Of a DNA stretch of 64,000 bases, positions 34,295 through 53,931 are shown piece by piece (within the stretch, counting starts at the first letter, position 1; each line of letters starts with the position of its first letter). A model generated the notes under the pieces. The model saw nothing but the letters and a program-made list of their open reading frames with translations, did no database searches and was not told the DNA's origin. Both the position numbers and the translations under genes were made by a program. The stretch is from Candidatus Omnitrophota bacterium (GTDB lineage: Bacteria > Omnitrophota > Gorgyraeia > Gygaellales > Profunditerraquicolaceae), in the NCBI GenBank assembly GCA_016208765.1, contig JACQXK010000001.1, positions 218-64,217 of the forward strand. The letters are read 5' to 3'.

Positions 34295-34516
34295 ATGGAA
34301 AAAGATAAGTTTCTGACAGTTGATGAGCTTTGCAAATACATCAAGATTCCCAAACCGACAATTTACATGCTGCTTGGCAAAGGGCATATCCCTGCAGCCA
34401 AGATCGGCAGGCAATGGAGGTTCAATAAAGACTCAATTGATGAGTGGATGAGGAAAAAAGAGGAGTATTACACCACAAGAAAAGAACGAAGAAAACGATC
34501 CGTATACAATTCATAA
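34295..34516 (+). CDS. small excisionase-family helix-turn-helix DNA-binding protein
   Basis: LTVDELCKYIKIPKPTIYMLLGKGHIPAAKIGRQWRF matches the excisionase/MerR-like HTH_17 pattern; basic C-terminal tail. Confidence 0.6.
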   Translation: MEKDKFLTVDELCKYIKIPKPTIYMLLGKGHIPAAKIGRQWRFNKDSIDEWMRKKEEYYTTRKERRKRSVYNS

Positions 34517-34595
34517 GCAAACGGAATCATAATTATATAAGTTCTTAAGAGTGTAAAAAGTTGCATAGCCTAAGTAATGGCTCAACAGTGAGTAA

Positions 34596-35834
34596 ATGCG
34601 CAAAAAAAGGATCGTCATTACAGGCATAGGTGTGGTATCTCCGGTTGGCCTCGGGAAAGAAGCTTTCTGGCATAACCTTTGGGAAGGTAAGCCGGGATTC
34701 GGGCCAATCAGTCTTTTTGATACCTCTGACCTTAAGGTTAAGGTCGCAGGCGAGGCCTCTGGATTTAACCCCCAGGAAATATTGGGGAAAAGAGGTTTGA
34801 TTGACCTTGACCGCGCCACGACACTATTATTATCCGCCGCTAAGTTTTGCCTTCAAGATAGCCAAATAGATTTAGCTAATATCAACTCTCCGACTACCGG
34901 TATTTGTATCGGCACTACCTTCGGAAGCCTCAACAGCCTTTCTGAGTTTGACGAACAATCTCTTCAGGAGGGGCCAAATTTTGTTAATGCCTCCAGATTT
35001 CCTAATACCGTAATCAATTCCCCGGCGAGCCGCGCAGCAATCCGTTATGGAATTAAAGGGCCGAATACTACTGTTTCCACAGGTTTCTGCGCCAGCCTTG
35101 ATGCCCTGGAGCACGCGGTTGATACTATTAACGCCGGGCGTGCAGAGAGGATAATTGCTGGCGGGCTTGAAGAGATGTGTATCCAGACCTTTCTTGGTTT
35201 TTACAGGCTCGGGTATCTGTCCGGCCTGAAGAATAACTATGAGCCAACAAGCTGTCCTTTTGACAAGAGAAGGGATGGTATAATTTTCTCCGAGGGGTCT
35301 GGAGTTTTTCTGGTTGAGGAGTTAGATGCTGCGCTTAACCGCAATGCGCATATTTATGCTGAGGTTCTTGGTATTGGTTCTGATTTTGACCCGTTTCGTT
35401 TGCACAAATTTAATCCAAAGGCTCGCGGCATGATAGAGGCGATGCAGTTTGCCTTGGAAGACGCGGGCATTGATACAGGTAAAATTGATTGTATTTTTGC
35501 CAATGCCAATTCAACTCCAGACGGAGATTATGTTGAGGCGAGGGCAATCCGGGAAGTTTTCCAAAAGCAGGCAGATGAAGTTCCGGTAACTGCCGTAAAA
35601 TCTATTACCGGTGAGTCGTTTAGCGCAGGAGGAAGTTTTGCGCTTGCTGCTGCTTTAGGCACTCTTGAAACAGGGCTTATTCCTCCGATAGTTAATTTTG
35701 AACAGGCAGATGCAGCAAGCAGGCTTAATTTTGTAAGTGATTCGGCAAGGATGGATAATGTTGATAAAATTATGATTAATGCCTTTGGTCCGAATGGCGC
35801 AAATAGTTCTGTGGTAATAGGGAGATATTATTAA
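34596..35834 (+). CDS. beta-ketoacyl synthase-like protein with a degenerate catalytic triad (Cys retained, both His lost): CLF-like / non-decarboxylating partner
   Basis: KAS I/II thiolase fold. Active-site Cys present (TGFCASLDALEHA). The HGTGT His box reads ANANSTPDGD (H to N). The KSxxGH box reads KSITGESFSAGG (H to E). Confidence 0.8.
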   Translation: MRKKRIVITGIGVVSPVGLGKEAFWHNLWEGKPGFGPISLFDTSDLKVKVAGEASGFNPQEILGKRGLIDLDRATTLLLSAAKFCLQDSQIDLANINSPTTGICIGTTFGSLNSLSEFDEQSLQEGPNFVNASRFPNTVINSPASRAAIRYGIKGPNTTVSTGFCASLDALEHAVDTINAGRAERIIAGGLEEMCIQTFLGFYRLGYLSGLKNNYEPTSCPFDKRRDGIIFSEGSGVFLVEELDAALNRNAHIYAEVLGIGSDFDPFRLHKFNPKARGMIEAMQFALEDAGIDTGKIDCIFANANSTPDGDYVEARAIREVFQKQADEVPVTAVKSITGESFSAGGSFALAAALGTLETGLIPPIVNFEQADAASRLNFVSDSARMDNVDKIMINAFGPNGANSSVVIGRYY

Positions 35835-35835
35835 G

Positions 35836-36273
35836 ATGGCTTATCTTAATATTGAGCAGATAATGCAAAGTATTTCGCAAAGGTTCCCGATGTTGTTTGT
35901 TGACAGGATCATTGAGCTTGAGCCGGGAAAGCAGGTTACAGCGATAAAAAATGTAACGATGAATGAACAATTTTTTTCAGGGCACTTTCCGGATGCCCCT
36001 ATTATGCCCGGGACATTGATTGTTGAAGCAATGGCGCAGGTCTCAACTTTTCTTTTTTATAATCCCGAGGACCCTCATAAAAAACTTGATTTCTTTTTGG
36101 GTGTAATTAAAGATGCCCGTTTTTTTAGGCCTGTAGTTCCCGGTGACAAAATAAAGATTGTTGCCCAGAGTATCCGGCTGGCAGAAGATAGCGCATACGT
36201 TAAGGCAAGCGCAGTTGTTGAGGATGCAAAGGTTTGTGAGGCAGAGCTTGTATTCGTGCGGAGAAAGAAATGA
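35836..36273 (+). CDS. fabZ: FabZ-like 3-hydroxyacyl-ACP dehydratase (hotdog fold)
   Basis: …FFSGHFPDAPIMPGTLIVEAMAQV… catalytic His and hotdog motif. Confidence 0.85.
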   Translation: MAYLNIEQIMQSISQRFPMLFVDRIIELEPGKQVTAIKNVTMNEQFFSGHFPDAPIMPGTLIVEAMAQVSTFLFYNPEDPHKKLDFFLGVIKDARFFRPVVPGDKIKIVAQSIRLAEDSAYVKASAVVEDAKVCEAELVFVRRKK

Positions 36274-37481
36274 AAAGAATTGTTATTACCGGCCTTGGGG
36301 CGGTTACTTCTATCGGATTGGGATGGAAAGATTTCTGGGTTAACCTTTTAGAAGGAAGATCCGGTATTTCAAAGATAACGGTTTTTGATACATCAAGGCA
36401 CGTAACTCACGTGGGAGGCGAGGTAAAAAGTTTTCGCCCGGAAGATTTTATTCCAAGGGCAAAAATAAAATATATCGGCAGGGCTTCGCAATTGGCGATT
36501 GCCGCGACTAAAATGGCATTGGCTGATGCAAAACTGGAAAAAGAGCTTTATTCTGAGGTGAGGACTTCGGTTTGCCTTGGTACGACTATGGGAGAGATCA
36601 GGTCGGTGGAAACCGCGGATCATTCCTGGATTAATTCAAGTAAAGATAAGCATCAGATTGACCCTTTTGAGGTTTACCGTTCTTCGGTAAATAATATCCC
36701 CTCAAATGTAGCCATTGCGTTTCACTTAAAAGGAAGGAACCGTATTTTTACCACTGCCTGTGCATCAGGAAATTACGCTATTGGCTACGGGTTTGATCTT
36801 TTGCGTTCAGGAAAAACAGACCTTGTTGTTGCAGGAGGCGCAGATGCACTTTCTTGGATTGCCTTTACCGGTTTTAATAAAGTGAGCGCCACTGCTCCAG
36901 AAAGATGCCAGCCTTTTGACAAAAATAGATTAGGCATGATCCCCGGAGAGGGCTCGGGTGTGTTAGTGCTTGAGGATTTGGATTCTGCGCTTTTGCGGGG
37001 TGCGCCTATTTATGCAGAAATCTTAGGCTATGGTTTAAGCTGTGATGCCAATCATATGACCAATCCAAATCCCGAGGGGGTTGCTGCTTGCATGCGCAAT
37101 GCCATGCTTGATGCCGGAATAAAACCAAGAGATGTTGATTATATCAGCGCGCATGGCACTGGAACTATTTTTAATGATAGGACAGAGAGTGCTGCTATTA
37201 ACGAGGTTTTTGGCAAGCGTTCGGTAAAGGTGAGCTCAATTAAGTCTATGCTGGGCCATACCATGGGAGCGGCCTCGGCAATTGAGGCAATTGCCTGCTG
37301 CCTTGCCTTAAAAGACCAGGTGCTTCCTCCGACGATAAATTATGAAACTCCGGATCCGGAATGTGATATAGATTGTATTCCTAATGCCGCCAGAAAACAA
37401 AAAGTGGATGTGGTTTTGAACAATGGTTTTGCTTTTGGCGGGAATAATGCTTGTGTCGTGTTAAAAAGATTTACAACTTGA
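36270..37481 (+). CDS. beta-ketoacyl-ACP synthase II-like (catalytically complete)
   Basis: Cys (TACASGNYAIGYG), His (ISAHGTGT), Lys/His (KSMLGHTMGAAS), C-terminal NNGFAFGGNNACVVL. Confidence 0.85.
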   Translation: MKRIVITGLGAVTSIGLGWKDFWVNLLEGRSGISKITVFDTSRHVTHVGGEVKSFRPEDFIPRAKIKYIGRASQLAIAATKMALADAKLEKELYSEVRTSVCLGTTMGEIRSVETADHSWINSSKDKHQIDPFEVYRSSVNNIPSNVAIAFHLKGRNRIFTTACASGNYAIGYGFDLLRSGKTDLVVAGGADALSWIAFTGFNKVSATAPERCQPFDKNRLGMIPGEGSGVLVLEDLDSALLRGAPIYAEILGYGLSCDANHMTNPNPEGVAACMRNAMLDAGIKPRDVDYISAHGTGTIFNDRTESAAINEVFGKRSVKVSSIKSMLGHTMGAASAIEAIACCLALKDQVLPPTINYETPDPECDIDCIPNAARKQKVDVVLNNGFAFGGNNACVVLKRFTT

Positions 37482-37494
37482 AAAGGAGGAAGCG

Positions 37495-37746
37495 ATGTTA
37501 GAGAATTTAGAAATGGAATTTAAGGAGATGTTATCAAAATTAACCGGGCTTGAACCAACTGAAATCGGCGACGAGGATGATTTGTTTAAAGACCTGGGGA
37601 TTGATTCTTTAAAGGTTATTGAGATTGCCACGCAAATTGAACGTAACTACAAAGTTGTGGTAAAAGACAGCCAGTTGGCGCGCCTGCGTACAGTAAAAGA
37701 CGCGGTAACTTTTTTAAGGGACCTTTTGGAGAAAAAGAATGCCTAA
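37495..37746 (+). CDS. acyl carrier protein
   Basis: LGIDSLKVIEIATQIE phosphopantetheine attachment site (DSL). Confidence 0.8.
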   Translation: MLENLEMEFKEMLSKLTGLEPTEIGDEDDLFKDLGIDSLKVIEIATQIERNYKVVVKDSQLARLRTVKDAVTFLRDLLEKKNA

Positions 37747-39049
37747 GGAAAAAAGAATTGCCATTACCGGTATAGGCCCGCTTGCATCCATTGGCACGGG
37801 CCGTAAAGAATTGTGGCAGAATTTGCTCGCCGGTAAAACTAATATTAAACTTGATGAAGCTTATATTGGAGACGAGCTTTGGGATAAATATCATTTTCAC
37901 AAGGTTGACAATTTTGATATTTCCCGTTTCGGCCTTGACAGGGGCGCTTTGGATTGGATCAAAGACTGGAAGCAGGGTGATGAAATAAAGGATTTATTAT
38001 ATTTGTTAGCCGTGATCAAGCTTGCTATTGATGACAGTGGGTTAGTGTATAATCCAGATGCTGAAAGTGATTTCGGTTTGGTTTTAGCTCATGAAAATAT
38101 GGCGCTGATCCCGTTTTTATTTAAGGTCAGCGAAACTGCGTATAATCTCATGAGCGATAAATCAAAACAGCTTACAAAAAAGAAGTTTTACGACGAGGTT
38201 TATCGTCTTTGTCTTAAGGCTGGTTATGATGTTCAGCCGTTTATGACCTTGTTTCATGTGGCAAAAGTGTTTAATGTCAGGCAGCATTCTTTATTTATTT
38301 GTAATGCCTGTGCTTCGGGATTGTATGCTTTGGAAACCGCCAGTGAAATGATACATAGTAATCAGAATTCTTCGGTGATTGTTGCGGCTTCGGATTTTCC
38401 GGATATTTACAAGTATTTATGGTTTAGGGACCTGGGAATTTATTCTAAAGATGGGATTTGCCGGCCATTTTCCAAAGATAGTAACGGCCTTGTTTTTGGA
38501 GACGGCGGAGTCGCAATTGTTATGGAAGATATGGAACATGCAAAAAAACGCAATGCTCCCATATATGGTGAATATTTGGGCGGTGGTTTTGCTCTTGAAG
38601 GTTGGCAGGTCACTGTGCCAAAAGTCGGTAGTGATTCTTATCAGAACGCGATGTTAAAGGCCTTGGAGCAGAGCAAGGTAAAGAGAGAAGATATAGATTT
38701 GCTCTGCCCGCACGGAGTAGGCTCGCATGTTATTGATTATTATGAATCAAAGGCAATTACTGAGATTTTCGGAGACAACCCTAAAAAACCATTAATTACT
38801 GCTTTTAAGCCTTACGTCGGGCACAACTTGGGAGGCAGCGCTTTACTTGAAGCGGCGATTTTGCTGCTTTGTTTGAGTAATGACACGGTTTTACCCGCTC
38901 TTAATTCCAGCAATTCTAATCCCGCCTATAAAATCCAACTTGTTCAGCAAACAGCAAAAACCAGGCTTAAAACTGTAATGAAAGCTTGTGCTGCCTTTGC
39001 CGGATTCAATTCCGCAGTGGTGTTTGGGAAGGGTGATAGCCTTGTGTAG
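37739..39049 (+). CDS. divergent beta-ketoacyl synthase with Cys-His-His triad and an ~80-aa N-terminal insertion
   Basis: ICNACASGLYALETA (Cys), LCPHGVGSH (His), KPYVGHNLGGSA (His). The insertion between the first conserved block and the Cys loop has no clear family match. Confidence 0.75.
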   Translation: MPKEKRIAITGIGPLASIGTGRKELWQNLLAGKTNIKLDEAYIGDELWDKYHFHKVDNFDISRFGLDRGALDWIKDWKQGDEIKDLLYLLAVIKLAIDDSGLVYNPDAESDFGLVLAHENMALIPFLFKVSETAYNLMSDKSKQLTKKKFYDEVYRLCLKAGYDVQPFMTLFHVAKVFNVRQHSLFICNACASGLYALETASEMIHSNQNSSVIVAASDFPDIYKYLWFRDLGIYSKDGICRPFSKDSNGLVFGDGGVAIVMEDMEHAKKRNAPIYGEYLGGGFALEGWQVTVPKVGSDSYQNAMLKALEQSKVKREDIDLLCPHGVGSHVIDYYESKAITEIFGDNPKKPLITAFKPYVGHNLGGSALLEAAILLLCLSNDTVLPALNSSNSNPAYKIQLVQQTAKTRLKTVMKACAAFAGFNSAVVFGKGDSLV

Positions 39050-39092
39050 CACATTTTATACCAGCGAGTTACATCCCTGAAGAAAATCTGTC

Positions 39093-39120
39093 TTGACTCC
39101 TGAAAATTACATGTTATATT
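39093..39120 (+). promoter_or_regulatory. sigma70-like promoter candidate upstream of the secreted repeat protein / RHS operon
   Basis: TTGACT (39093-39098), 16-nt spacer, TATATT (39115-39120). Confidence 0.35.
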
Positions 39121-39179
39121 GAAATCAGATTTTGCCACGGAGAGAAAGCAGATTCTCTTAATAAGGAAAGGCTGAAATC

Positions 39180-40466
39180 GTGATATTAAAGGCTAAGCCA
39201 ACAAAGGTTTTGATTATAACTTTGGCTTTAGCCTTATTTTTTTGTCTTTTTACTGCTTCTGCGTTTGCCGGCGCTCTTTCTATCCCCATGGTCGGCCCCT
39301 CAGCAGGCGGCTGCACTGCTAACTACCAGCAAATCTTCACCACTACCTTTAATGACTTAAGCGGCTGGCAGCATGTTAACTATGTCTACTTTGTAATTAA
39401 CACTACTGCTTCTGGCTCCAGCTGTTTTTATGGCTACTACAATCAGAATACCAACAAGCTCTATATTAAAAATGATGCAGGTAATGCTTGGTTAGGTGGA
39501 TTTGCTCCCGGCTCAAACAATCTAATTGAAAACTCTTATGTTAAGCTAAACTGCGCTCAAACTACAGTCTCAGGCTCAGGACAGACTATGTTTGTAAACT
39601 GGGCAGTAACTTTTAAGCCTCCTTTTGTCGGTACAAAAAATATGTATCTTTATGTCAGGGACGACTCTAATGCTTATCAGCCTCTTACTAAAAGAGGCAC
39701 CTGGACTATTCCTAACCATACCCCAACAATAGTATCAGTTATTCCTAATCAGGGAACCTCTCAACCTGAGCAAGCCTTAACCTTTACCACTATTTACCTT
39801 GATACTGATACCTGGATTAATATTAAGTATGTCTATTTCCGAATTAGCCCCTCTCTTACAGGTTTGACTAATTGCTTCTATGGCTACTATGACCAGGATA
39901 ACAACAAGCTCTACCTAAGAAATGACACTAACACAGCCTGGCTTGGAGGCTACACCCCCGGCTCAAACTATACTATTGAAAACTCTTATGCTAAATTAGA
40001 CTGCTCTAAGACAATTGTTACAGGAAATTCCGATACCTTAAGCATTAACTGGCAGATTATCCCTAAAACCACCTTTACCGGCACAAAGAACCTCTATCTT
40101 TATGTCAGAGATAACAATAATGCCTACCAAGGCTGGTTACAGAAGGGGACATGGAGTATTGATAATACAGATACTACTCCGCCGCAGATTACCCAGCTTA
40201 GCCCTGTGGATGCAAGCCGTATTTATGAAAATGCTTCTGTTGTTATTAAGCCAACAATAACTGATAACAATCAGTCTGCAGTTACTTATCAATTTTCTGT
40301 TGATGGAGTAGTTAAACAGGTTTGGTCAAGTAGTGCTACTTATAATTGGGTAAGTCCTTTAGCAGGTGCGCATACTATTAAGGCAGAAGCAAAGGATGAG
40401 GCCGGGCAGTCTATCAAAAGTGCTGAGGTATTTATCTTAAGAAAACCCATGGAAGTTGCAAATTAA
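39180..40466 (+). CDS. secreted protein with two tandem ~150-aa beta-rich repeats and a C-terminal Ig-like domain
   Basis: Signal peptide ending SAFAGA. Repeat 1 (…NYVYFVINTTASGSSCFYGYYNQNTNKLYIKNDAGNAWLGGFAPGSN…NMYLYVRDDSNAYQ…GTWTI) and repeat 2 (…KYVYFRISPSL…CFYGYYDQDNNKLYLRNDTNTAWLGGYTPGSN…NLYLYVRDNNNAYQ…GTWSI) are clearly homologous. GTG start; 6-nt gap to the RHS gene. Confidence 0.6.
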   Translation: MILKAKPTKVLIITLALALFFCLFTASAFAGALSIPMVGPSAGGCTANYQQIFTTTFNDLSGWQHVNYVYFVINTTASGSSCFYGYYNQNTNKLYIKNDAGNAWLGGFAPGSNNLIENSYVKLNCAQTTVSGSGQTMFVNWAVTFKPPFVGTKNMYLYVRDDSNAYQPLTKRGTWTIPNHTPTIVSVIPNQGTSQPEQALTFTTIYLDTDTWINIKYVYFRISPSLTGLTNCFYGYYDQDNNKLYLRNDTNTAWLGGYTPGSNYTIENSYAKLDCSKTIVTGNSDTLSINWQIIPKTTFTGTKNLYLYVRDNNNAYQGWLQKGTWSIDNTDTTPPQITQLSPVDASRIYENASVVIKPTITDNNQSAVTYQFSVDGVVKQVWSSSATYNWVSPLAGAHTIKAEAKDEAGQSIKSAEVFILRKPMEVAN

Positions 40467-40472
40467 CCATAT

Positions 40473-43400
40473 ATGAAAAAGTCAATCATCAAAATTCTTT
40501 CTTTGGCTTTAATCATTACGCACTTATTTACAATTTGTTTAAGGGATGTTTCCTTTGCTGCTGGGTCAAGCACAACTACTTCTAACACAAGTACAACTAA
40601 TTCTGGCGCAAGTACAACTAAAAGCACAACAACTTCTATCCAATCGCAGTCTAAGTCAACAAGCAGCGACACTAAAACCAAGAGCCCTGCTCTTAGTTCA
40701 GCCAAATCAATGAGCCTATCCGCAGCAAGCAGTTCTTCGTCTCCACAAATGAGCACAAGTTTTAACACTTCAGTTTTAAAATCTTTTCAGAGCGATCCCT
40801 TTACCGGAAGAGCATCGTTTTCCGTTTCTATAAGTGTTCCGGTAGGCCGGAAAGGTATTCAGCCTAATATTGCGCTCACCTATGCCTCAGGTTCAGGTAA
40901 CGGCATATTAGGCGTAGGTTGGAGCTTAGAGTTAGGTTCTATTCAGCGTTCCACTAAACGCGGTACTCCAAAATATGATTCTACGGATACTTTTATTTTT
41001 AACTCCTTAGGCTCAAATCAGGAATTAGTTAATATTGGCGGTAATGAATACCGTACTAAAATTGAAGGCAGTTTCTCAAAGTTTACTTTTGACGGCACAA
41101 GCTGGGTAATCACTGATAAAGGTGGCACAAAATACTACTTTGGGCAAGATGAGGCTTCAAGACAGATAAATTCTAAGGGAATATTTTCATGGAATTTAAA
41201 TAAGGTTGTTGATCTGCAGACGAATTTTCTTGAAATAGAATATTTTGTTGATCAGGGCCAGATATACCCAGTTAAGGTTAAATATACAGGTAATCAATCC
41301 CAGAATCTTGAGCCTTTATGTGAAGTTCATTTTGTTTTCACTGATCGCGCTGACTATTCTTTTAATTACCGCAGCGGCTCAAAAGTTGTAACTGCAAAAA
41401 GGCTTACTGAAATTAAGTCTAAATTTCGCAGCAATATAATAAATCAGTACAAAATAGAGTATCTTGAAGAACAAAATGCAAGGCCGCTTTCCTTAATAAA
41501 GCAAATTACACTGTTTGATGCATCTTCAAACAATTCTTATCCTCCGGTAGTATTTACTTATCAGGAATTAAACCCCAGTTTTACTGATATTCAGCAATTG
41601 CCGATCTTACGCCGCAGTGATGATCCTTTAAGGAATTCCGAGGAGTACAGTTTTTTCCGGTATCAAAGCGAGAACAAAGTATTTAGCACTATGCTTGATA
41701 TAAATTCAGATGGATTGGTTGACTGGATACAGCGTAAAAACAATTCTCCGTATACAAATTACTCTGTTTTGTTAAATAACGGCTCAGGGTTTAATGAGCC
41801 TCTTGGCTGGGGGCCTTTATTGGGAGATTTAGCAGAAGGGGCAGTTGAATGGAGCAATGACGGTTTATACCGGGATTTAGGAGTTTTAGATATTAATGGC
41901 GACAGCCTTGCTGACAGGGTTTATTATAAAATTAATGATCCAAGATACCAGGTTCAGCTAAATACAGGGTTAGGCTTTGATAATTTTTATACTTATTTTA
42001 GCCAGTTGTATGGCGGCGGAGAAGCATATGATTGTATAACAGGAATTTCTTCAAATGGGATCAGGTCTGAAACAATGGACATAAATGGTGACGGTTTTGC
42101 TGACAAAGTAATGGCAACAAGAAATGGCTCTCCGTATAATTCCATGGATGTGCAGCTAAATAACGGCTCCTCTTTTGGCCAGATAATAAAATGGCCGGTT
42201 TCATGGGAAGACAGTAGGCTTACATCAGAGGGGTGGAATTATCTAAGGGCATCCTCGGGTAATACAACCTTACTTACAATCTTAGATATTAACGGTGACG
42301 GTTTGCCAGACAGAGTGATGCGAAAATATGATGCGCCTTATACTGGTTTTGATGTCCAGCTTAATAATGGCAGTGGATTTGATAAGCCTGTGGTTTGGGG
42401 GCCGCTACTTTATAACTGCGGGCCAGAAGCATCTTCTCCAGAGTGGAGCGATAACGGCCTTTATAAAAGATTAGCCCTTATTGATATGAATGGAGACGGC
42501 CTGCCTGACAGGGTGCATTATGAAGATGGAGATAATAAATATGAGGTGCAATTAAATAACGGCCATGGTTTTGAAGCTACTTATGTGTATTGGACAAATA
42601 TTGGCTCCCGTGGACAGGAATTTGATTGTATCACAGGTTATTCTGTTGGCCCGTATGGTGTGCGCGCTGACGTATTTGATATTAATGGTGACGGCCTGCC
42701 GGATAAGCTTACCAATAAAATAACAGGCGCTCCTTATGATTATGTGGAAGCCAGATTAAATAATAATCCTGTGCCTGCAGGTTATCTTAAGGAAATCTCA
42801 AACGGCATCGGAGGCTCAGTAGCAGTTACCTACAAGCCATATAAAGGTAAGGATAACTCAACTTACGACCCACAAAAACTCTTACCGTTTTGTGTCTGGG
42901 TGGTTGATTCTATTACTCAAAACTCAGGTTTTGAACAGCCGATAAATACCCATAGTTTTAAATACGACTCTGGATTTTTTGATTTTAAGGATCGCGAATT
43001 CCGCGGCTTTGGCTATGCAAAAACCACTGATTCCGAAGGTACTTCCAGCGAAAGCTATTTTAAACAGGACAGCATCTTTAAAGCAAGGCCATATAAACAG
43101 GAAGTAAAAGATAAAGACAACAAGCTTTATTCAAAAACAGAAAACACCTGGCAAAGTGTTGAGCTTTATCCCGGAGTTAACTTGCCATATCTAGTTCAAA
43201 CTGATAATTATGTTTATGATCCTGATAATTCCGACAATTACAAACAAACCCGCGTAAAATACGAATATGATTCTTATGGTAATCCTAAAAAAGTCATCTC
43301 TGAAGGTGAGGTTAATGTAATTGGCGATGAGAAGACCCAGGTTACGGAATATATTTATAATACTACTGATTGGATTATCTCTTGCCCTAAATCTACTACA

Positions 43401-46400
43401 CTTTTAGATAAGAACCAAACTAAAGTTTCTGAAAAGCGCTTCTACTACGATAATCATGCCAGCCTTGATGAAATCCCGGCAAAAGGAATACTAAGCAAGG
43501 AAGAAAGCTACCTCAAGGATCCAATTAAAAATACCCAAAAGTATATATCATCAAGCTATGCTTATGACAGTTATGGTAATTTAACCAGCTCAACTGATGC
43601 CTTGGGTAGGATCACCTCAATTGTCTATGACACAGTGCAGTTTTCCTATCCAGTGCAAACAACCAATGCCTTAGGTAAAAGCGTAAAAACTGTTTATTAC
43701 GGAATTAACGATTCTCTACAAGATGCAATTACTGGCTCAGGTTTACCCGGCCAGGTAAAATTCACCGAAGATTACAATACTCAAAAAAATTATAATATCT
43801 ATGATTCTTTGGGTAGAATTACTAAGGCTATCGGCCCGCTTGATTCGGAGGACTCTCCAGGAGCAATCTACGAATATGATTTATCAAGCCAGCCGATTAA
43901 AGTTGTCAGAAAAGTTAAGGTTGATTATTCCGCTCAACCTGCGTATCTTACAAGTTATTCTTTTTATGATGGCTTGGGCCGTGTGATTGAAGATAAAACT
44001 CCTGCTGAAAATAATCCCATAAATAATCAGCCCCGCCAGATAATCTCAGGCCTTGTAAGATATGATTCCCGCTGCCAGATTAAGGAGAAGTACTTGCCTT
44101 ATTTTGTGGATGCCTCAGCAAACTACGAATCTCCTGTATATAATACTCCGCACTCAAGTTTTATTTACGATGCTTTAGGCCGCCTCACCCAAAGCATTAA
44201 CCCGGATTTAACCAGCTCTAGTGTTTTATACGGAGTTTGGTTCAAGGCCACTACTGATGAAAATAACCACTCTAAGGGTTATTATTTTGATTCCTATGGA
44301 AAAATTACCAAAGTAGAAGAGCATAACAGTGGTCAGATTTATACCACTAAATATGAATATGACACATTAGGTAATCTTATTAAGCTTACAGATAATCAGA
44401 ATAATGTTACCCAGATTTGGTATGATTCACTATGTAGGAAAATAAAGATGTCAGATCCAGATATGGGTATCTGGCTGTATGAATATGATGCCTTGGGGAA
44501 TCTTATCAAGCAAACCGATGCCAAGAATCAGGTTTTGGAATTCCACTATGATTCTTTAAATAGGCTGACTAACAAGCTTAACTCAAGTAACCCAAGCAAC
44601 CCAATAACCCTGGTAACTTACTCTTACGACGACCCCGGCAAAGACCATTGCCTTGGCCGTCTTTCCAAAATAACTGATCTATCCGGCTCAACTGATTTTT
44701 ACTATGACAAATTAGGTAGAGAAGTTAAATCCACAAAAACTATTACAGGCTCAGGTACTTATACTGTTGAGCGCATCTATGATGCTTTAGACAGATTACT
44801 CACTCTTAAATACCCCGACTCTACACTCATAACCTACAGCTATAATCCTCAAGGAATTGAAAAGGTGCAGGGACTGTCCCCGCAGGGGACTGTCCCTTAT
44901 ATTCTAAATATTGATTACTCTCCCACAGGCCAACTGCTCAAGGTGCAATATGGCAATGGCACTCAAACAAACTACGCTTATGAGCCTAATACCCTAAGGC
45001 TAAATAATATCGTTACCCAATCACCAAGCGGTAAAATCCAGGACCTAAGCTATCAGTTTGATAATACCGGTAACATCAGGAACATAGTTGATGCAGTAAA
45101 CACCGCTACTCAAAGTTTTGTTTATGATGACCTAAGCCGTCTTATTCAAGCAAACGGCTCTTATGGTGCGCTTACTTACTCTTATGATTCCATAGGAAAC
45201 ATGATTAATAAAGAAGGTGTTAATTTAACTTATGGCAAAGGCGGTAAGCTTCCTCATGCTGTTACTCAATACGGAAATGACTTGTCTATTGATTATGATG
45301 CAAATGGAAACATGATTACAAAAGGCGACCTATCTCTAATCTATGATGCAGAAAACCGCCTCAAAGAAGCTCAAAGAGCTCCTCCACAACCGGTAACTAT
45401 CAGTATCACCCTAAAGCCGGGATGGAATTTCCTCTCGCTTCCAATAATCCCTCAGGATACTAAAGTAAACTCAGTTTTGGCTCAAATCTCCGGAAAGTAC
45501 TCTCAAATATCCCGCTATAGCCCTAATACCAAAACCTTTGAGCATAATGTTGCTAATACTAAGTTTGATCAGTTCACTGATTTTGAATACGGCAAGGGCT
45601 ATCAAATCTATATTACAAGTACAACAGATGTTGACTTAAATATTACCGGCACACTACCATTAACTACTCAAAACATCGGTCTTGTTACAGGAGAGAACTT
45701 GATCTTTTGCCCAAAGACAACCGAGACTACAGTAGAAGCAGCGCTATTTCCTTTAAAGCTTGATACAGATTATTCTAAGGTTGTTTACTATAACAAATTC
45801 TTAAATAAGTTTGAAGAATACTCAAGCATAAAACAGGAATTTACGACCCTAAAACCCGGAACCAGCTATTATCTTTACTGTTTAAAAGATACTACTCTAA
45901 CTGTATCCGGCTCTCAACAACCACCAGTTAGTTTTACTTATGATGGCGACGGAGGAAGAGTGAGAAAGGGACTGTCCCCGCAGGGGACTGTCCCTGAACA
46001 ATGGACCACCTACATCGGCTCCCTCTACGAAATTAACTCTGACGGCACTACTACTAAACATATTTTCTCCGGCTCAAACCGTATTGCCTCGTCATTGCGA
46101 AACGCCGCAGGCGTTGAAGCAATCTCGTATTTCCATAGTGATCATTTAGGAAGCTCTAATATTATCACTGACTCAAGTGGCAAGCAGATAGGCTTTACTG
46201 AATTTACTCCTTATGGCTCAACCTTTAAACAAACAGGAACCTTTGATCCAAAATACAAATTCACCGGCAAAGAGCTTGATTCTTCCACTGGATTATATTA
46301 TTATGGTGCCAGGTATTATGATCCGCTCTTTGGCAGATTCATTACTCCAGACACCATCGTCCAAGCTCCCTATGATCCACAGAGTTTAAACCGATATTCT

Positions 46401-47330
46401 TACTGTCGAAACAACCCGATAAATCTGGTTGACCCTACCGGACACTCGTGGAAGAGTTTTTGGAAAAAGTTCGGTGGTGCCATAGCTTCGGTGGTAGTGG
46501 GAATAGTGGTAGGAGTATTTACTGCTGGTATTGGAACCGCCTTTTACACTTCAATGATGGGTGGTAGTGCGTTTTGGGGTGGGGTATTAAGTGCTGCGAC
46601 TACTGGTGCACTAGCAGGTGCCGCTGCCGGAGGTGTAGGTGGCGCCTTCTATGGGCAGAATATAGGTCAATCAATGTTAATGGGGGCGGCGTTTGGCGCC
46701 CTTAGCGGGGCGGTCTTTGGTGGCATGATCAGCAAGGTTGGTGGACCTGATTGGAATTGGAAGGTTGGGCTTGAAAGGGTTGGATTATCTGCCATTGCCG
46801 GTGGAGGTATATCCGAGTTGGCAGGGGGATCTTTTGAGAATGGGGCGATGTTCGCCGGCGCTATTGCGGGAGCAGATTTTCTATATAGGGGTATCGTAAG
46901 TACTAAGCCTGCAGGAAAGAATGTAGGTGCCTCTATGAAAACAGCACAAGATAATGGCTTGCCAAAGTTGGATGCCAATGGTAAAGCTCTTATGGTGGAT
47001 AATAAGCCTGTAGTTATAAATACTCCGAAATATAGTAATGTCGGGTTTGGGTCAAGAGTTGGTGATATTAGCCTGGGGAATGGTCTCACTGGAGAAACAG
47101 GGCCTGTTATGAGTGGTTTAGGCCGGTTTGTTCCCGGTTTCCAAAGGTTTTCCCTTGCTCATGATATAACAGGTGATTTTTTAAGTAGAACCTTTGGCGG
47201 CACAGTCAATGCCGCTGCCTTTAATTTTGAAACAATGCCTGTGCTATATGGGCTTAATGCAGCGGGGTCGCTAATCAATGATAGCCCAGGTATGATTGGG
47301 TACTATGAAGAAAGTTGGAATGATAGATAA
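40473..47330 (+). CDS. giant secreted SpvB/FG-GAP/RHS-repeat polymorphic toxin (TcB-TcC 'BC'-like) with a glycine-zipper-rich C-terminal tip
   Basis: Layout: signal peptide; S/T-rich linker; SpvB-type N-terminal domain (…SFSVSISVPVGRKGIQPNIALTYASGSGNGILGVGWSL…); seven DINGDGLPD-type FG-GAP repeats; many YD repeats; an inserted ~185-aa domain (45381-45930); RHS core (YFHSDHLGSSNII…GARYYDPLFGRFITPD…NPINLVDPTGHSW); a ~290-aa tip starting about 46447 with GxxxG-rich hydrophobic segments. Confidence 0.9.
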   Translation: MKKSIIKILSLALIITHLFTICLRDVSFAAGSSTTTSNTSTTNSGASTTKSTTTSIQSQSKSTSSDTKTKSPALSSAKSMSLSAASSSSSPQMSTSFNTSVLKSFQSDPFTGRASFSVSISVPVGRKGIQPNIALTYASGSGNGILGVGWSLELGSIQRSTKRGTPKYDSTDTFIFNSLGSNQELVNIGGNEYRTKIEGSFSKFTFDGTSWVITDKGGTKYYFGQDEASRQINSKGIFSWNLNKVVDLQTNFLEIEYFVDQGQIYPVKVKYTGNQSQNLEPLCEVHFVFTDRADYSFNYRSGSKVVTAKRLTEIKSKFRSNIINQYKIEYLEEQNARPLSLIKQITLFDASSNNSYPPVVFTYQELNPSFTDIQQLPILRRSDDPLRNSEEYSFFRYQSENKVFSTMLDINSDGLVDWIQRKNNSPYTNYSVLLNNGSGFNEPLGWGPLLGDLAEGAVEWSNDGLYRDLGVLDINGDSLADRVYYKINDPRYQVQLNTGLGFDNFYTYFSQLYGGGEAYDCITGISSNGIRSETMDINGDGFADKVMATRNGSPYNSMDVQLNNGSSFGQIIKWPVSWEDSRLTSEGWNYLRASSGNTTLLTILDINGDGLPDRVMRKYDAPYTGFDVQLNNGSGFDKPVVWGPLLYNCGPEASSPEWSDNGLYKRLALIDMNGDGLPDRVHYEDGDNKYEVQLNNGHGFEATYVYWTNIGSRGQEFDCITGYSVGPYGVRADVFDINGDGLPDKLTNKITGAPYDYVEARLNNNPVPAGYLKEISNGIGGSVAVTYKPYKGKDNSTYDPQKLLPFCVWVVDSITQNSGFEQPINTHSFKYDSGFFDFKDREFRGFGYAKTTDSEGTSSESYFKQDSIFKARPYKQEVKDKDNKLYSKTENTWQSVELYPGVNLPYLVQTDNYVYDPDNSDNYKQTRVKYEYDSYGNPKKVISEGEVNVIGDEKTQVTEYIYNTTDWIISCPKSTTLLDKNQTKVSEKRFYYDNHASLDEIPAKGILSKEESYLKDPIKNTQKYISSSYAYDSYGNLTSSTDALGRITSIVYDTVQFSYPVQTTNALGKSVKTVYYGINDSLQDAITGSGLPGQVKFTEDYNTQKNYNIYDSLGRITKAIGPLDSEDSPGAIYEYDLSSQPIKVVRKVKVDYSAQPAYLTSYSFYDGLGRVIEDKTPAENNPINNQPRQIISGLVRYDSRCQIKEKYLPYFVDASANYESPVYNTPHSSFIYDALGRLTQSINPDLTSSSVLYGVWFKATTDENNHSKGYYFDSYGKITKVEEHNSGQIYTTKYEYDTLGNLIKLTDNQNNVTQIWYDSLCRKIKMSDPDMGIWLYEYDALGNLIKQTDAKNQVLEFHYDSLNRLTNKLNSSNPSNPITLVTYSYDDPGKDHCLGRLSKITDLSGSTDFYYDKLGREVKSTKTITGSGTYTVERIYDALDRLLTLKYPDSTLITYSYNPQGIEKVQGLSPQGTVPYILNIDYSPTGQLLKVQYGNGTQTNYAYEPNTLRLNNIVTQSPSGKIQDLSYQFDNTGNIRNIVDAVNTATQSFVYDDLSRLIQANGSYGALTYSYDSIGNMINKEGVNLTYGKGGKLPHAVTQYGNDLSIDYDANGNMITKGDLSLIYDAENRLKEAQRAPPQPVTISITLKPGWNFLSLPIIPQDTKVNSVLAQISGKYSQISRYSPNTKTFEHNVANTKFDQFTDFEYGKGYQIYITSTTDVDLNITGTLPLTTQNIGLVTGENLIFCPKTTETTVEAALFPLKLDTDYSKVVYYNKFLNKFEEYSSIKQEFTTLKPGTSYYLYCLKDTTLTVSGSQQPPVSFTYDGDGGRVRKGLSPQGTVPEQWTTYIGSLYEINSDGTTTKHIFSGSNRIASSLRNAAGVEAISYFHSDHLGSSNIITDSSGKQIGFTEFTPYGSTFKQTGTFDPKYKFTGKELDSSTGLYYYGARYYDPLFGRFITPDTIVQAPYDPQSLNRYSYCRNNPINLVDPTGHSWKSFWKKFGGAIASVVVGIVVGVFTAGIGTAFYTSMMGGSAFWGGVLSAATTGALAGAAAGGVGGAFYGQNIGQSMLMGAAFGALSGAVFGGMISKVGGPDWNWKVGLERVGLSAIAGGGISELAGGSFENGAMFAGAIAGADFLYRGIVSTKPAGKNVGASMKTAQDNGLPKLDANGKALMVDNKPVVINTPKYSNVGFGSRVGDISLGNGLTGETGPVMSGLGRFVPGFQRFSLAHDITGDFLSRTFGGTVNAAAFNFETMPVLYGLNAAGSLINDSPGMIGYYEESWNDR
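44870..44896 (+). repeat. 27-nt GC-rich tandem-palindrome insert GGGACTGTCCCCGCAGGGGACTGTCCC inside the RHS ORF (copy 1)
   Basis: Read directly. Each half, GGGACTGTCCC, is palindromic around a central base. About 74% GC in an AT-rich gene. In-frame, encoding GLSPQGTVP. Confidence 0.7.
45969..45995 (+). repeat. identical 27-nt GC-rich tandem-palindrome insert inside the RHS ORF (copy 2)
   Basis: 27/27 identical to 44870-44896, same reading frame (GLSPQGTVP), 1.1 kb downstream, immediately 5' of the block that is duplicated at 49038. Confidence 0.7.
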
Positions 47331-47343
47331 TATGGGAGATTTT

Positions 47344-47949
47344 ATGAGAATAGTAGTCTTAATCGTGATACTGCTTGTATCTTTTAGTCAGAGTTCTTAC
47401 GCCGGGTTGTTTAAATTTGACCCCGAGGCGAAATTTAAAGAAGCTGATTATATGATTAGTATAGATCGGCATATTGCAGCGGATAAGCTGATAAGTGAGG
47501 TTATAGCTTATTGCAAAAAGAAAAATGATGAGGCTTGTCTAGCGAAAGCCTTCTTTTATTATGGGAAGTTGTTAATGGCAGAAATTCCAGATGGATATGA
47601 TCGTGAGAAGAATAGTGCACGTAGGCCAGGAGGCAGCTATGTAGACGACAGCGTGACTGTAGGAAATATTGATCAAAAAGCCATGGAGTACTTTGACAAA
47701 GCACTATACTTAGCAAAGAAACACGGTCTAAATGATGCTGCCTCTGCTATATACATCAAGATTGGTATCTTGCAATACACGCGTTTTAAGGATAGTACTG
47801 CGGCTTGTGAGAGTTTTGATCGCAGCTTGGAGTATTACTTGCTATTTAAAAAGGACAATCCGAACACAACGGTCATAATACCAAAGGGGTTTGATAGTTT
47901 TGAAGAATATATAGCGCAGGCGAAGCGCGAAGCGGGGTGTCAGAAATAG
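47344..47949 (+). CDS. candidate cognate immunity protein (signal peptide + ~180-aa soluble domain) for the RHS tip
   Basis: Lies immediately 3' of the RHS stop. GGGAGA RBS 5 nt before the ATG at 47344 (alternative ATG at 47332; the track start 47296 overlaps the RHS gene). MRIVVLIVILLVSFSQSSYAG signal sequence. Confidence 0.45.
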   Translation: MRIVVLIVILLVSFSQSSYAGLFKFDPEAKFKEADYMISIDRHIAADKLISEVIAYCKKKNDEACLAKAFFYYGKLLMAEIPDGYDREKNSARRPGGSYVDDSVTVGNIDQKAMEYFDKALYLAKKHGLNDAASAIYIKIGILQYTRFKDSTAACESFDRSLEYYLLFKKDNPNTTVIIPKGFDSFEEYIAQAKREAGCQK

Positions 47950-48096
47950 AGCGGCTTGAGAGATATGGGATTAGCACAAATTGTGCGGATTTTGCGGTGG
48001 GGACAACTCATGAAGCGCTAAGTCCACAAGGCAAATAAAATTACGCGAGATAGTATAGGCAATTTTTTTTACACGAATGCATAAGTTGGAGGAAAA

Positions 48097-48891
48097 ATGA
48101 GTAAAACACAATATTATGATTCAACTATAGAATCACCGCCTGCTACTATGGATCAATATTATGCGGATGTAGGTGAGAGAATAATAGTTAGAGAAATTAG
48201 GAAATATGGTAAAAATCTGAAAGTTTTAGATGTAGGCTGCGGAGAAGGAATGTTGGGTTCTTTTCTTTTGGACGATAATCAAGTTTATGGTGTAGAAATC
48301 TTTGAAGAAAAAGTTAAAAGATGTTGTGAAAAGGGAATTAATGCAAAATTGGTTAGGGATAATGATCCAATACCATATATGGATTCTTGTTTTGATGTAG
48401 TTACTTGTTGTCAAGTTTTGGAACATCTGTTGAATCCATTTTACATGGTTGAAGAAATGCATAGAGTTTTAAAAAATGATGGTTTGCTGGTAGTTACAGT
48501 TCCTAATATATATGATTTAATAACAAGAGTTAGGTTTCCTTTTGGGATTTGGACGAAAATCCAATTTGGCGCAAATCTTGGACACATAAGATTCTATTCT
48601 AAGAAAACATTAATAAAATTGATCAAAGAAGAAGGATTTGTAATACAGAAATGTATATCATATGGTTTTATAGTTTACTTGCAAAAACCTGTAGCTTTAT
48701 TAGCTTATGGTTTAGCATTTGTTGTGAATCCGTTATGGTTTGTAAAAAATAGAGGGGGATTAAAGCTTAGGAAACAACAGATTTATCAGAATATTAACAT
48801 TTTTCTAACTAAAATCTTGGGTTTTACATCTTTTGGTGCTGATTTAATGATAATAGCAAAAAAGCAAACAAAATTCTCCATTTCTGTCTAA
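48097..48891 (+). CDS. class I SAM-dependent methyltransferase with C-terminal hydrophobic segment
   Basis: Motif I VLDVGCGEGMLG, acidic loop after beta2 (VYGVEI), motif II region DVVTCCQVLEHL; GGAGG RBS upstream. Confidence 0.7.
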   Translation: MSKTQYYDSTIESPPATMDQYYADVGERIIVREIRKYGKNLKVLDVGCGEGMLGSFLLDDNQVYGVEIFEEKVKRCCEKGINAKLVRDNDPIPYMDSCFDVVTCCQVLEHLLNPFYMVEEMHRVLKNDGLLVVTVPNIYDLITRVRFPFGIWTKIQFGANLGHIRFYSKKTLIKLIKEEGFVIQKCISYGFIVYLQKPVALLAYGLAFVVNPLWFVKNRGGLKLRKQQIYQNINIFLTKILGFTSFGADLMIIAKKQTKFSISV

Positions 48892-49036
48892 AATTTGCTT
48901 AACTTACATTACTATAAGAAGTTAGATAAATCTGTTTGTTAGGTACGAACGTAAAATTAAGGGTTCTATTTTTCTGGATGGGAATTACGGGCGGAAATTC
49001 CTGGGACACAACACTTAACTTTAAGAAGCAACTTCC

Positions 49037-49100
49037 ACCACCTACATCGGCTCCCTCTACGAAGTCAACTCTGACGGCACCACTACTAAACACATCTTCA
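49037..49100 (+). other. orphan RHS gene fragment (recombination scar) homologous to 46005-46070 of the main RHS gene
   Basis: CCACCTACATCGGCTCCCTCTACGAA is 26/26 identical to 46006-46031, followed by about 85% identity for ~40 nt. It encodes TTYIGSLYEVNSDGTTTKHIF, preceded by an in-frame TAA, then diverges (RNQDAFHNHL, stop). Confidence 0.6.
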
Positions 49101-49255
49101 GAAACCAAGACGCTTTCCATAACCATTTGTAACTTAATTACTCCCACAACAAATCCTTTGGTCGGAATTAGATAAGGATTAAAATTAATTTGACAACAAG
49201 TAATTTATAGGTTATAGTTTATATGTGATATAGATTATAACTTATATTAAATGAC

Positions 49256-53928: not shown

Positions 53929-53931
53929 TCC

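Follow-up and report, generated by a model that had tools for sequence, protein, structure and literature searches.

A candidate operon for unsaturated acyl chains in an Omnitrophota genome, related to anammox Cluster I

The DNA analysed here, a stretch of 64,000 nucleotides from a metagenome-assembled genome (MAG) of a Candidatus Omnitrophota bacterium and called the window below, carries at 34295-39049 a cassette of three ketosynthase (KS) genes, a dehydratase gene and an acyl carrier protein (ACP) gene. We propose that this cassette is the biosynthetic core of an operon conserved in Omnitrophota and Elusimicrobiota, which has no radical-SAM genes and is related to anammox Cluster I as well as to the clusters of Desulfotalea type, and that it is a specialised module of the KS/chain-length-factor (CLF) type making a (poly)unsaturated acyl chain; we put the probability of this reading at about 0.65. 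Homology places KS1 and KS2, the first two of the three ketosynthases, in the same clades as amxFabFmut and amxFabF2 of the anammox bacterium B. fulgida. In what follows, loci named L plus three digits are related loci compared with the window, and coordinates are window positions unless a locus is named.

The open reading frame (ORF) listing reproduces all six genes that an earlier, sequence-only reading had placed on the plus strand of this cassette: an HTH_17/excisionase-family helix-turn-helix (HTH) gene (34295-34516, 73 residues), KS1 (34596-35834), a FabZ-type 3-hydroxyacyl-ACP dehydratase gene (35836-36273), KS2 (36270-37481), the ACP gene (37495-37746, 83 residues) and KS3 (37739-39049). 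Pfam and NCBIfam agree with its description of three condensing enzymes, one hotdog dehydratase and an ACP headed by an excisionase-type regulator, giving HTH_17/excisionase, three pairs of N- and C-terminal ketoacyl-synt domains, FabA/FabZ (PF07977, E=2e-27) and PP-binding (PF00550, E=4e-15, with the serine of the DSL motif present). The five biosynthetic genes are separated by +1, -4, +13 and -8 nucleotides, and because of this tight packing they are almost certainly carried on one transcript. As that reading also held, acyltransferase, ketoreductase (KR) and enoyl reductase (ER) are missing, both from the cassette and from the whole 64-kb window, in a Pfam scan of ORFs of at least 110 residues; the same scan of the window found no fabD, fabG, fabH, fabI or radical-SAM genes, and no thioesterase or acyltransferase is among the Pfam matches of the window ORFs.

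A triad-less ketosynthase beside a catalytically complete one

Catalytic positions were read from an alignment of 113 sequences, comprising the three window ketosynthases, those of related loci, canonical FabFs, B. subtilis FabF as anchor and both chains of PDB entry 9S5H. Across the catalytic columns KS1 reads F/N/K/E/P, so that the triad has become Phe/Asn/Glu, the Lys is kept and the gate Phe is replaced by Pro. The loss of both His residues had been recognised from the sequence, and the re-alignment indeed shows Asn (ANANST) and Glu (TGES) in their columns; the Glu at the second of these is invariant in all aligned members of the KS1 family, the anammox proteins included. The active-site Cys that had been ascribed to KS1 was a misreading, since the catalytic column holds Phe (STG-F-CAS) and the Cys stands one residue later, at a position that varies in the family (C/T/P/I/V/A/S). 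We therefore describe KS1 as a putatively dead, CLF-like ketosynthase homologue of the amxFabFmut family. KS2, of the amxFabF2 family, has the complete set Cys-His-Lys-His-Phe and is catalytically complete, as had been supposed; it is presumably the active, elongating member of the pair.

When compared with PDB sequences, the two proteins find the two chains of a single structure. The top match of KS1 is chain C of 9S5H (9s5h_C, E=4e-100, 339 bits; best FabF 7e-69, 236 bits) and that of KS2 is chain B (9s5h_B, E=3e-143, 481 bits), followed for KS2 by the ishigamide ketosynthase Iga11 (6kxd_A, 1.6e-106) and FabF (6e-97, 329 bits). The tunnel motif FPNTV of amxFabFmut (F135/T138/V139) is conserved in KS1, and five of the six tunnel positions of KS2 are identical to those of amxFabF2. 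The nearest solved structure is a heterodimer of one dead and one active subunit, which favours the suggestion that KS1 is a CLF-like partner of KS2.

Structures of the anammox heterodimer, amxFabFhet, are PDB 9S5H/9S5I (bioRxiv 10.64898/2026.05.19.726425). Our literature search found no paper citing the code 9S5H, and the entry was tied to the preprint by residue numbers (KS Cys = 165, Phe of FPNTV = 135). At positions named in the preprint, chain B has H298, H335, F394, A110, A164, F203 and M337 and chain C has T138 and V139; one named residue is off, I112, where chain B has Glu. By this match in numbering, 9S5H is the B. fulgida amxFabF2/amxFabFmut heterodimer. In a neighbor-joining (NJ) tree of 408 columns with 100 bootstraps, KS1 groups with the anammox amxFabFmut proteins at 95% and the KS3 clade receives 100%; the KS1, KS2 and KS3 clades all stand apart from 77 canonical FabFs, and the KS1 and KS2 subtrees are similar in shape.

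Each of the K. stuttgartiensis proteins amxFabF2 and amxFabFmut is inactive alone, and the two co-purify as a heterodimer; the co-expressed pair carries out malonyl-ACP decarboxylation and acetoacetyl-ACP formation in vitro, and crosslinking assays on the B. fulgida pair show that the preferred chain length is tuned by residues of the dead subunit (bioRxiv 10.64898/2026.05.19.726425). In the Omnitrophota genome, the ratio of nonsynonymous to synonymous substitution rates (dN/dS, by the method of Nei and Gojobori with L086 or L088 as reference) is 0.071 for KS1 against L088. KS1 is therefore strongly constrained though catalytically dead, as would be expected of a structural partner. From homology, the conserved tunnel residues and purifying selection on KS1, we infer that KS1 and KS2 would form a physical heterodimer.

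Dehydratase, carrier protein and third ketosynthase

Two signatures set amxFabZ apart, a bulky residue at the tunnel position where canonical FabZ usually has Gly, and loss of a basic residue in the ACP patch (bioRxiv 10.64898/2026.05.19.726425). The window FabZ carries both substitutions while keeping the catalytic His50 and Glu64. Its tunnel position (His+21) is Thr71, and Ile stands there in 30 of 40 module relatives and in the anammox locus L065; among the canonical FabZs that we fetched, His+21 is Ala in four of five and Cys in the other. At the ACP-patch position the window protein has Phe, and the residue is non-basic, almost always hydrophobic, in 40 of 42 relatives. The window FabZ nevertheless passes the equivalog model NF000582 (153.2 against a cut-off of 113) and falls just below TIGR01750 (152.7 against 155.15). 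The ACP scores 42.6 with the acpP model TIGR00517, below the cut-off of 70.45, and is 100% identical in amino acids to its L086 counterpart at a dS of 0.44. None of the three ketosynthases reaches the fabF cut-off of TIGR03150 (493.75), KS2 scoring 441.5, KS1 331.6 and KS3 181.3, and KS2 passes the FabF subfamily model NF005589. The description of the cassette as a specialised module agrees with KS2 and the ACP falling below the fabF and acpP equivalog cut-offs and with the non-canonical signature residues of FabZ.

These scores bear on a simpler reading, in which the cassette would be the housekeeping system for making fatty acids (FAS, type II), holding the sole fabF, fabZ and acpP copies of the organism, with KS2/KS1 replacing FabH and KS3 acting as general elongase. 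That FabZ and KS2 pass NF000582 and NF005589 fits this idea, as does the ability of the anammox heterodimer to initiate by forming acetoacetyl-ACP; moreover, the cassette sits amid core genes whose synteny is kept (tsaBE, alr, lptFG, comF), and no further fab gene lies within the 64-kb window. We nonetheless regard it as quite unlikely. KS2, KS3 and the ACP remain below the fabF/acpP equivalog cut-offs, FabZ is without the canonical tunnel Gly/Ala and basic ACP-patch residue, and the module comes together with a CrtI-like flavoprotein, a sensor kinase and, in most cases, a KR of its own. Furthermore, ordinary acpP-fabF pairs occur in other Omnitrophota MAGs (L021, L022, L036), and the homologous cluster of anammox bacteria coexists with canonical FabF (bioRxiv 10.64898/2026.05.19.726425).

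KS3 has the complete set Cys-His-Lys-His-Phe in the same alignment. The full C-H-H triad first read from its sequence stands, but the unusual N-terminal insertion of about 80 residues does not: KS3 exceeds FabF in length by about 26 residues, owing to three small insertions of about 8, 5 and 12 residues in or before the helix-loop-helix lid, the latter two lying within it. At E<=1e-30 it has 668 homologues, of which all those with a source name are labelled Omnitrophota; the top 120 are 426-455 residues long, nearly all of them 430-436. An AlphaFold2 (AF2) model made with 32 homologues (pLDDT, the predicted local distance difference test score, 90.5) shows an ordinary ketoacyl-ACP synthase (KAS) fold with an extra lid helix, and its fold matches in the PDB are led by Iga11, with FabF proteins next. 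We accordingly predict that KS3 is an active ketosynthase and that it represents a separate subfamily, dominated by Omnitrophota, whose lid is enlarged and carries positive charge. The net charge of this lid (residues ~110-178) is +3 to +4 in KS3, compared with -1 to -6 in KS2-type proteins (-2 in the window KS2) and about 0 in canonical FabFs, and it raises the possibility that KS3 might pair with KS2 or KS1 instead of with itself.

A conserved operon and its interruptions

The cassette had been viewed as a compact, minimal set of five genes, a view that does not survive comparison with its relatives. Past KS3, loci L001, L083-L087 and L088 carry genes for a flavoprotein of about 470 residues, a histidine kinase of about 700 residues and receiver-only response regulators, and nothing interrupts the run of KS3, flavoprotein and kinase genes in L001. 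The window has the same flavoprotein, kinase and regulator genes about 11 kb further downstream of KS3, all on the plus strand. They comprise a frameshifted gene for a flavoprotein of the CrtI/phytoene-desaturase family (50493-51838, recognised by tblastn and by blastn against relatives), a 697-residue sensor histidine kinase (51835-53928; Pfam HisKA_7TM, GAF and HATPase_c; referred to below as the 7TM-GAF kinase, 7TM standing for seven transmembrane segments), a 130-residue receiver-only response regulator (55460-55852; PF00072, E=4e-21) and a 263-residue carrier-domain fusion protein (55853-56644; PF00550, E=4e-10; NF002150 64 against a cut-off of 66). Kinase orthologues follow KS3 or the flavoprotein in L001 and L083-L087, and the response regulator holds the same position in L085, L086 and several metagenome loci. 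By gene content and order, the five-gene cassette forms the centre of a conserved operon some 12 kb long, not a minimal unit, and the conserved unit reaches about 56.6 kb in the window, broken by an insertion.

How general this arrangement is was assessed by a metagenome scan anchored on KS3, in which module proteins were mapped in 80 loci and counts refer to loci long enough to be informative. KS1, FabZ, KS2 and ACP genes lie upstream of KS3 in 20 of 22 such loci, a short-chain dehydrogenase KR is adjacent to KS1 in 17 of 19, the flavoprotein gene is adjacent to KS3 in 34 of 45, and a 7TM-GAF kinase lies at most 5.5 kb downstream in every case (23/23). The B12 radical-SAM gene, sought by tblastn with the protein of L065, was found in none of the 80. 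The window and its nearest relatives L090, L001 and L088 belong to the minority without KR. A second scan, for contigs by alignment with KS1, gave 80 loci that were mostly canonical FabF, matched through the generic VITGxG pattern, the informative ones being L001-L007, L051 and L065. Here KS1-family genes adjoin KS2-type genes in Nitrospirota (L002), Acidobacteriota (L005/L006), a non-anammox member of the Planctomycetia (L003) and Desulfobacteraceae (L007). The Omnitrophota-type contig L083 has at its positions 5470-9809 (= L149) a second, more divergent set of KS1-like, KR, ACP, dehydratase (DH) and KS2-like genes, into which a GIY-YIG gene is inserted; this set lies directly upstream of the main one, and the module has therefore been duplicated at least once.

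All intact genes of the window operon are under strong purifying selection, with dN/dS from 0 to 0.14. Against L086 the values are 0 for the ACP, 0.034 for KS3, 0.137 for the kinase, 0.068 for the response regulator and 0.055 for the 263-residue protein; against L088 they are 0.083 for FabZ and 0.020 for the HTH protein, in addition to the value already given for KS1. The HTH protein matches PF12728 (E=1.2e-17) and TIGR01764 (E=8e-19), and a homologue lies just 5' of KS1 in L003, L085 and L088 and upstream in 8 of 15 informative metagenome loci. No integrase was found near the gene, and its product is probably a transcriptional regulator of the operon. A promoter scan gave no sigma-70-like site upstream of it on the plus strand, and a terminator scan gave none after KS3.

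The interruption itself was read from L086 and L087, which match the window flanks at 85-89% nucleotide identity and join position 39030 straight to 49182. The intervening 10.15 kb (39031-49181, strand not assigned), absent from both relatives at the DNA level, is on this comparison an insertion that splits the operon between KS3 and the flavoprotein gene. The cassette had been placed between comF and a toxin island, and comF does lie upstream and an RHS toxin gene downstream; what does not hold is the island as a mere neighbour. The island contains a gene for an Ig-like secreted protein (39180-40466, with only a weak Big_7 match in Pfam), an RHS/YD toxin gene (40473-47330), a 217-residue ORF, a methyltransferase gene (48097-48891) and an orphan RHS tip (about 49037-49099). 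A good promoter-like site lies at its head (39093-39120). Target-site duplications are absent at both insertion boundaries, where a 16-nt overlap of blastn coordinates is not a true repeat.

Beyond the island, a degraded AbiEii gene (ORFs of 90 and 87 residues) and an HTH_3 antitoxin-like gene occupy 49256-50472 on the plus strand, identified by blastn and the HTH_3 Pfam match. The region aligns at 84% identity with L086 2070-3345 and L087 1406-2681, where an intact AbiEii of 237 residues is encoded, and it is a small mobile toxin-antitoxin pair located at the same spot in close relatives. A further AbiE-type toxin-antitoxin insertion of 1.5 kb (53931-55431, plus strand; a 212-residue ORF and a 277-residue AbiEii, PF08843, E=1.7e-26) separates kinase and regulator genes; it is absent from L086, in which the regulator follows the kinase directly. 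AbiE-type modules are found in different intergenic gaps of the same operon among closely related genomes (window 49256-49969 and 54000-55441; L086 2142-5139), and these gaps seem to be landing sites for mobile defence or addiction genes.

The flavoprotein gene is itself damaged. Compared with L087 it has lost 58 nucleotides (44 + 14) near 51104-51116; tblastn with the intact orthologues of L083, L084 and L085 places a change of frame at about 51110, and a stop codon follows at 51126. What remains are ORFs of 211 and 203 residues, compared with 468 residues in the relatives, the gene being intact in L001 and L083-L087. The deletion could be an assembly error in the MAG. As a separate observation, no blastn match to L086 or L087 joins the two ends of the segment 50670-52475, which covers the flavoprotein gene and the sensor half at the 5' end of the kinase gene; the flavoprotein gene has about 59% nucleotide identity to L086/L087 overall compared with 85-89% on the flanks, which suggests allelic replacement of this diverged segment through recombination.

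Such damage raises the question of whether the operon is a decaying remnant, non-functional as a unit in this genome and with its KS genes heading to loss. The 10.15-kb insertion, the 58-nt deletion, the split AbiEii, the 1.5-kb AbiE insertion and the absence of KR all point that way. We judge this unlikely, as the biosynthetic ORFs, kinase, regulator and ACP-fusion protein are intact with dN/dS of 0 to 0.14, and 11 of 45 related loci are naturally without an adjacent flavoprotein gene, which is therefore dispensable in some versions of the operon; the deletion, too, could stem from an error of assembly. A specialised module remains our preferred interpretation, with the qualification that an island between KS3 and the flavoprotein gene, together with the frameshift, means that any product would lack the flavoprotein step.

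The 263-residue protein consists of two copies of a domain of about 80 residues and a C-terminal AcpP-like carrier domain with the serine of a DSV motif; the repeat was found using an 87-residue protein of L085, and orthologues occur in L086 and L142. Its gene directly follows that of the receiver-only regulator, and its parts are separate small genes in L085. A carrier protein within a two-component locus (55853-56644) is unusual.

Several further features of the window stand apart from the operon. The genes upstream of the cassette are housekeeping genes (aminoacyl-tRNA synthetases, ClpC/McsAB, MlaDEF, IspDF, TsaBE, Alr, LptFG and ComF), and the flanking synteny is kept in relatives. Three consecutive genes of this Omnitrophota genome (8812-12816) encode, in turn, a UVR-motif protein, an ATP:guanido phosphotransferase and an AAA+ protein of ClpC type; the mcsA-mcsB-clpC arrangement is best known from Firmicutes. 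Nearly all long ORFs of the window (1-64000) are on the plus strand, and GC skew is positive almost throughout, with a cumulative rise to 5.08; it drops only inside the RHS island (44-46 kb, -0.12), consistent with a foreign origin of that segment. A 63-nt stretch at the end of the RHS core, encoding TTYIGSLYEINSDGTTTKHIF, lies at 46005-46067 and recurs with 92% identity at 49037-49099, 3 kb downstream and outside the main ORF, where it has the look of an orphan RHS tip that the swapping of toxin cassettes left behind. The RHS gene also holds a perfect, internally repetitive 29-nt direct repeat, AGGGACTGTCCCCGCAGGGGACTGTCCCT, at 44869-44897 and 45967-45995, 1,098 nt apart, both copies of which encode GLSPQGTVP. 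In the gene for the Ig-like protein there is an internal duplication of about 450 nt (39423-39574 against 39873-40024, 71%; 39624-39679 against 40074-40129, 75%). Rfam and tRNA scans found no RNA elements or tRNAs across the whole window.

Related clusters and the predicted product

Cluster I of anammox bacteria (KustE3603-3608) comprises amxACP, amxFabZ, amxFabF2, amxFabFmut, a phytoene-dehydrogenase homologue (PDH) and a B12 radical-SAM protein; it has been called "unique to ladderane-producing bacteria", and its dead FabF the first chain-length factor in a fatty-acid pathway (bioRxiv 10.64898/2026.05.19.726425). The Brocadiaceae locus L065 is such a cluster, in the order FabZ, KS2-type, KS1-type, PDH and B12 radical-SAM, and locus L051 from an anammox MAG runs B12 radical-SAM, KS2-type and KS1-type. 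The Omnitrophota operon, whose kinship with Cluster I the sequence-only reading had missed, shares with it an active KS (KS2, C/H/K/H/F) beside a triad-less paralogue (KS1, F/N/E with Lys kept), the same His to Asn and His to Glu changes and the same FPNTV motif; pairs of the amxFabFhet type are marked by a subunit with V/T for the Cys, N/C for the first His and E for the second. Also common to both are a dehydratase with a bulky side chain in place of the tunnel Gly and without the basic residue of the ACP patch, a dedicated ACP, a CrtI-like flavoprotein and the lack of an ER within the cluster. The flavoprotein orthologue of L084 has 33% identity (256 bits) to the Brocadiaceae PDH of L065, and that of L087 matches CrtI (4dgk) at 75 bits. 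Unlike Cluster I, the Omnitrophota operon has no B12 radical-SAM gene, adds the third KS subfamily of KS3, is invariably linked to a 7TM-GAF kinase and regulator and usually has a KR within the cluster. The order of the pair also differs, with KS1 before KS2 in the window and FabF2 before FabFmut in the Brocadiaceae locus, as does the catalytic column of the dead subunit, which is Phe or Met in Omnitrophota-type proteins and Val or Thr in anammox ones; the host is an Omnitrophota MAG, not an anammox planctomycete.

Five of the six Cluster I families (ACP, FabZ, FabF2, FabFmut and PDH) have homologues here, and antiSMASH labels Omnitrophota clusters of this sort "ladderane" (bioRxiv 10.1101/2022.12.20.521206), so that genuine ladderane synthesis in a non-anammox bacterium has to be considered. 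The B12 radical-SAM gene is present in both anammox loci (L065, L051) and in L007, and its absence from the window ORFs scanned with Pfam and from all 80 loci makes ladderane synthesis unlikely. Ladderanes have been reported from anammox bacteria only (bioRxiv 10.64898/2026.05.19.726425; bioRxiv 10.1101/2022.12.20.521206), and Desulfotalea, with an even more similar cluster, has polyunsaturated hydrocarbons and no ladderanes (PMC2649909). On these grounds we consider genuine ladderane synthesis here extremely unlikely. The "ladderane" biosynthetic gene clusters (BGCs) of non-anammox MAGs from the Cariaco Basin, expressed but with no assigned function and found in Omnitrophota and eight other lineages (bioRxiv 10.1101/2022.12.20.521206), are probably the same kind of locus; the reports of them give a cluster-type label and no gene-level anatomy, KS1/KS2/KS3 distinction, kinase linkage or radical-SAM absence.

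Clusters of FabF paralogues in Desulfotalea, Geobacter and Pelobacter were described by Rattray et al. in 2009 as "rare but not unique", and an anaerobic pathway to polyunsaturated lipids, that is polyunsaturated fatty acids (PUFA) or hydrocarbons, was proposed for them (PMC2649909). Our preferred reading of the Omnitrophota operon, an unsaturated-chain module, resembles this proposal. Like the Desulfotalea-type cluster of L007, the operon combines an active with a dead FabF paralogue, from the same clades as there, with FabZ, ACP and, in most relatives, KR, and is not ladderane-linked. Unlike the window, L007 (Desulfobacteraceae) has five radical-SAM genes, two of them with a B12 domain, and several KS pairs, and in the stretch of it that we examined neither a KS3-type gene nor anything matching the 7TM kinase is present. 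The ishigamide system (Iga10-13/16, with Iga11/Iga12; PDB 6KXD) offers a second parallel, a heterodimeric KS/CLF logic with KR, DH and ACP and without ER; Iga11 ranks second among the sequence matches of KS2 and first among the fold matches of KS3. It differs in that the CLF-like subunit of the window belongs to the amxFabFmut clade, amide-forming and tailoring genes are lacking and the host is not an actinomycete. Measured against a highly reducing (polyene) type II polyketide synthase (PKS), the window offers a KS/CLF-like pair, an ACP and a DH without an ER; it also has no KR, which 17 of 19 relatives possess.

Other type II systems fit less well. Aromatic CLFs typically have Gln at the Cys position and aryl-polyene (APE) clusters carry an ApeH-type adenylating starter enzyme, a thioesterase, an acyl- or glycosyltransferase, a LolA-like protein and an MMPL exporter. 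In KS1 the Cys column is Phe, and no cyclase or aromatase families were found in the window; the APE accessory families are absent from the Pfam matches of the window ORFs and of L083-L087, a screen that did not take in the 80 metagenome loci. KS1 and KS2, moreover, group with the anammox pair. An APE or classical aromatic type II PKS cluster is for these reasons very unlikely, even if the combination of KS, CLF, third KS, hotdog dehydratase and ACP resembles ApeO/ApeC/ApeR (PMC8358021), and a precomputed ApeI-like Pfam match falls on FabZ. A PKS-like type II system of the cispentacin/coronafacic-acid kind was considered and rejected, the scores for AmcF, AmcE and AmcB being far below their cut-offs, with no AmcH-type adenylating enzyme found.

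We propose the following model for the operon. It is plausible that KS2 and KS1 form a heterodimer in which KS1 lends the tunnel walls through its FPNTV motif and contributes no chemistry, and that the pair, working on the dedicated ACP, uses malonyl-ACP to prime itself and lengthens short chains. In this model KR would reduce each beta-keto group, a task that FabG would have to perform in trans in the window genome, and the amxFabZ-like dehydratase would carry out dehydration in each round. KS3, as a separate active KS with an enlarged lid, may serve in priming or in later elongation over another range of chain lengths. The CrtI-like flavoprotein would add or isomerise double bonds, a step that appears to be lost in this genome. 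Expression is presumably tied to a signal from the membrane or from lipids through the 7TM-GAF kinase, the response regulator and the HTH protein. As no ER is encoded, a (poly)unsaturated or polyenoic acyl chain is the likeliest product. An unsaturated acyl or polyene product had been the first guess for this cassette, and it is still the most plausible one, having also been made for the related clusters in 2009 (PMC2649909).

Several observations weigh against our interpretation and temper the confidence that we place in it. The clade of KS2-type partners including amxFabF2 is recovered with a bootstrap of only 47%. The anammox heterodimer did not elongate past C4 in vitro (bioRxiv 10.64898/2026.05.19.726425). 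A proxy for the electrostatic asymmetry reported for the amxFabFhet interface, in which charges were summed over the helix-loop-helix (residues 110-140) and the interacting helix (196-206), averages -3.2 in KS2-type proteins compared with +0.3 in canonical FabF; since the reference amxFabFmut is itself not positive, this proxy is uninformative. In PDB searches the window FabZ and ACP are overall at least as close to canonical proteins as to amxFabZ and amxACP. Furthermore, the window has no KR and its flavoprotein gene is broken, such that the pathway may be altered or decaying, and the heterodimer, activity and product of the Omnitrophota proteins are predicted ones.

That clusters of this type occur outside anammox bacteria was already known, the non-anammox ones having been noted in 2009 (PMC2649909) and those of Omnitrophota flagged by antiSMASH surveys; what distinguishes the Omnitrophota/Elusimicrobiota form is that it lacks a radical-SAM gene, adds the KS3 subfamily and always comes with a sensor kinase. 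A literature search on fatty-acid synthesis in Omnitrophota brought nothing of use. How ladderanes are made has long been an unsolved problem, and Cluster I has been taken to be confined to their producers. The window and about 90 related loci contradict this view, for in them most of the Cluster I set, namely the KS/CLF-like pair, a FabZ with the amxFabZ signature, the ACP and a PDH-like flavoprotein, is a conserved operon under purifying selection in bacteria without radical-SAM enzymes. This separates the part of Cluster I that likely makes a generic unsaturated precursor from the part that possibly makes the cyclobutanes, and it supplies many naturally occurring versions that could be reconstituted in a heterologous host, some with KR or the flavoprotein and others lacking them, and including ones with a third KS.

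It is possible, as a more tentative extension, that the unsaturated-chain module is ancient and portable, common to Omnitrophota, Elusimicrobiota, Nitrospirota, Acidobacteriota, Desulfobacterota and Planctomycetota, that anammox ladderane synthesis arose by adding radical-SAM enzymes on top of it, and that the Omnitrophota kinase senses the lipid product of the module or the state of the membrane. If this were true, the operon would amount to a circuit for a membrane lipid or lipid signal that regulates itself, its product belonging to a class not described so far. More broadly, our results point to a lipid or polyene, as yet uncharacterised and controlled by a two-component system, in a phylum that is widespread and uncultured.

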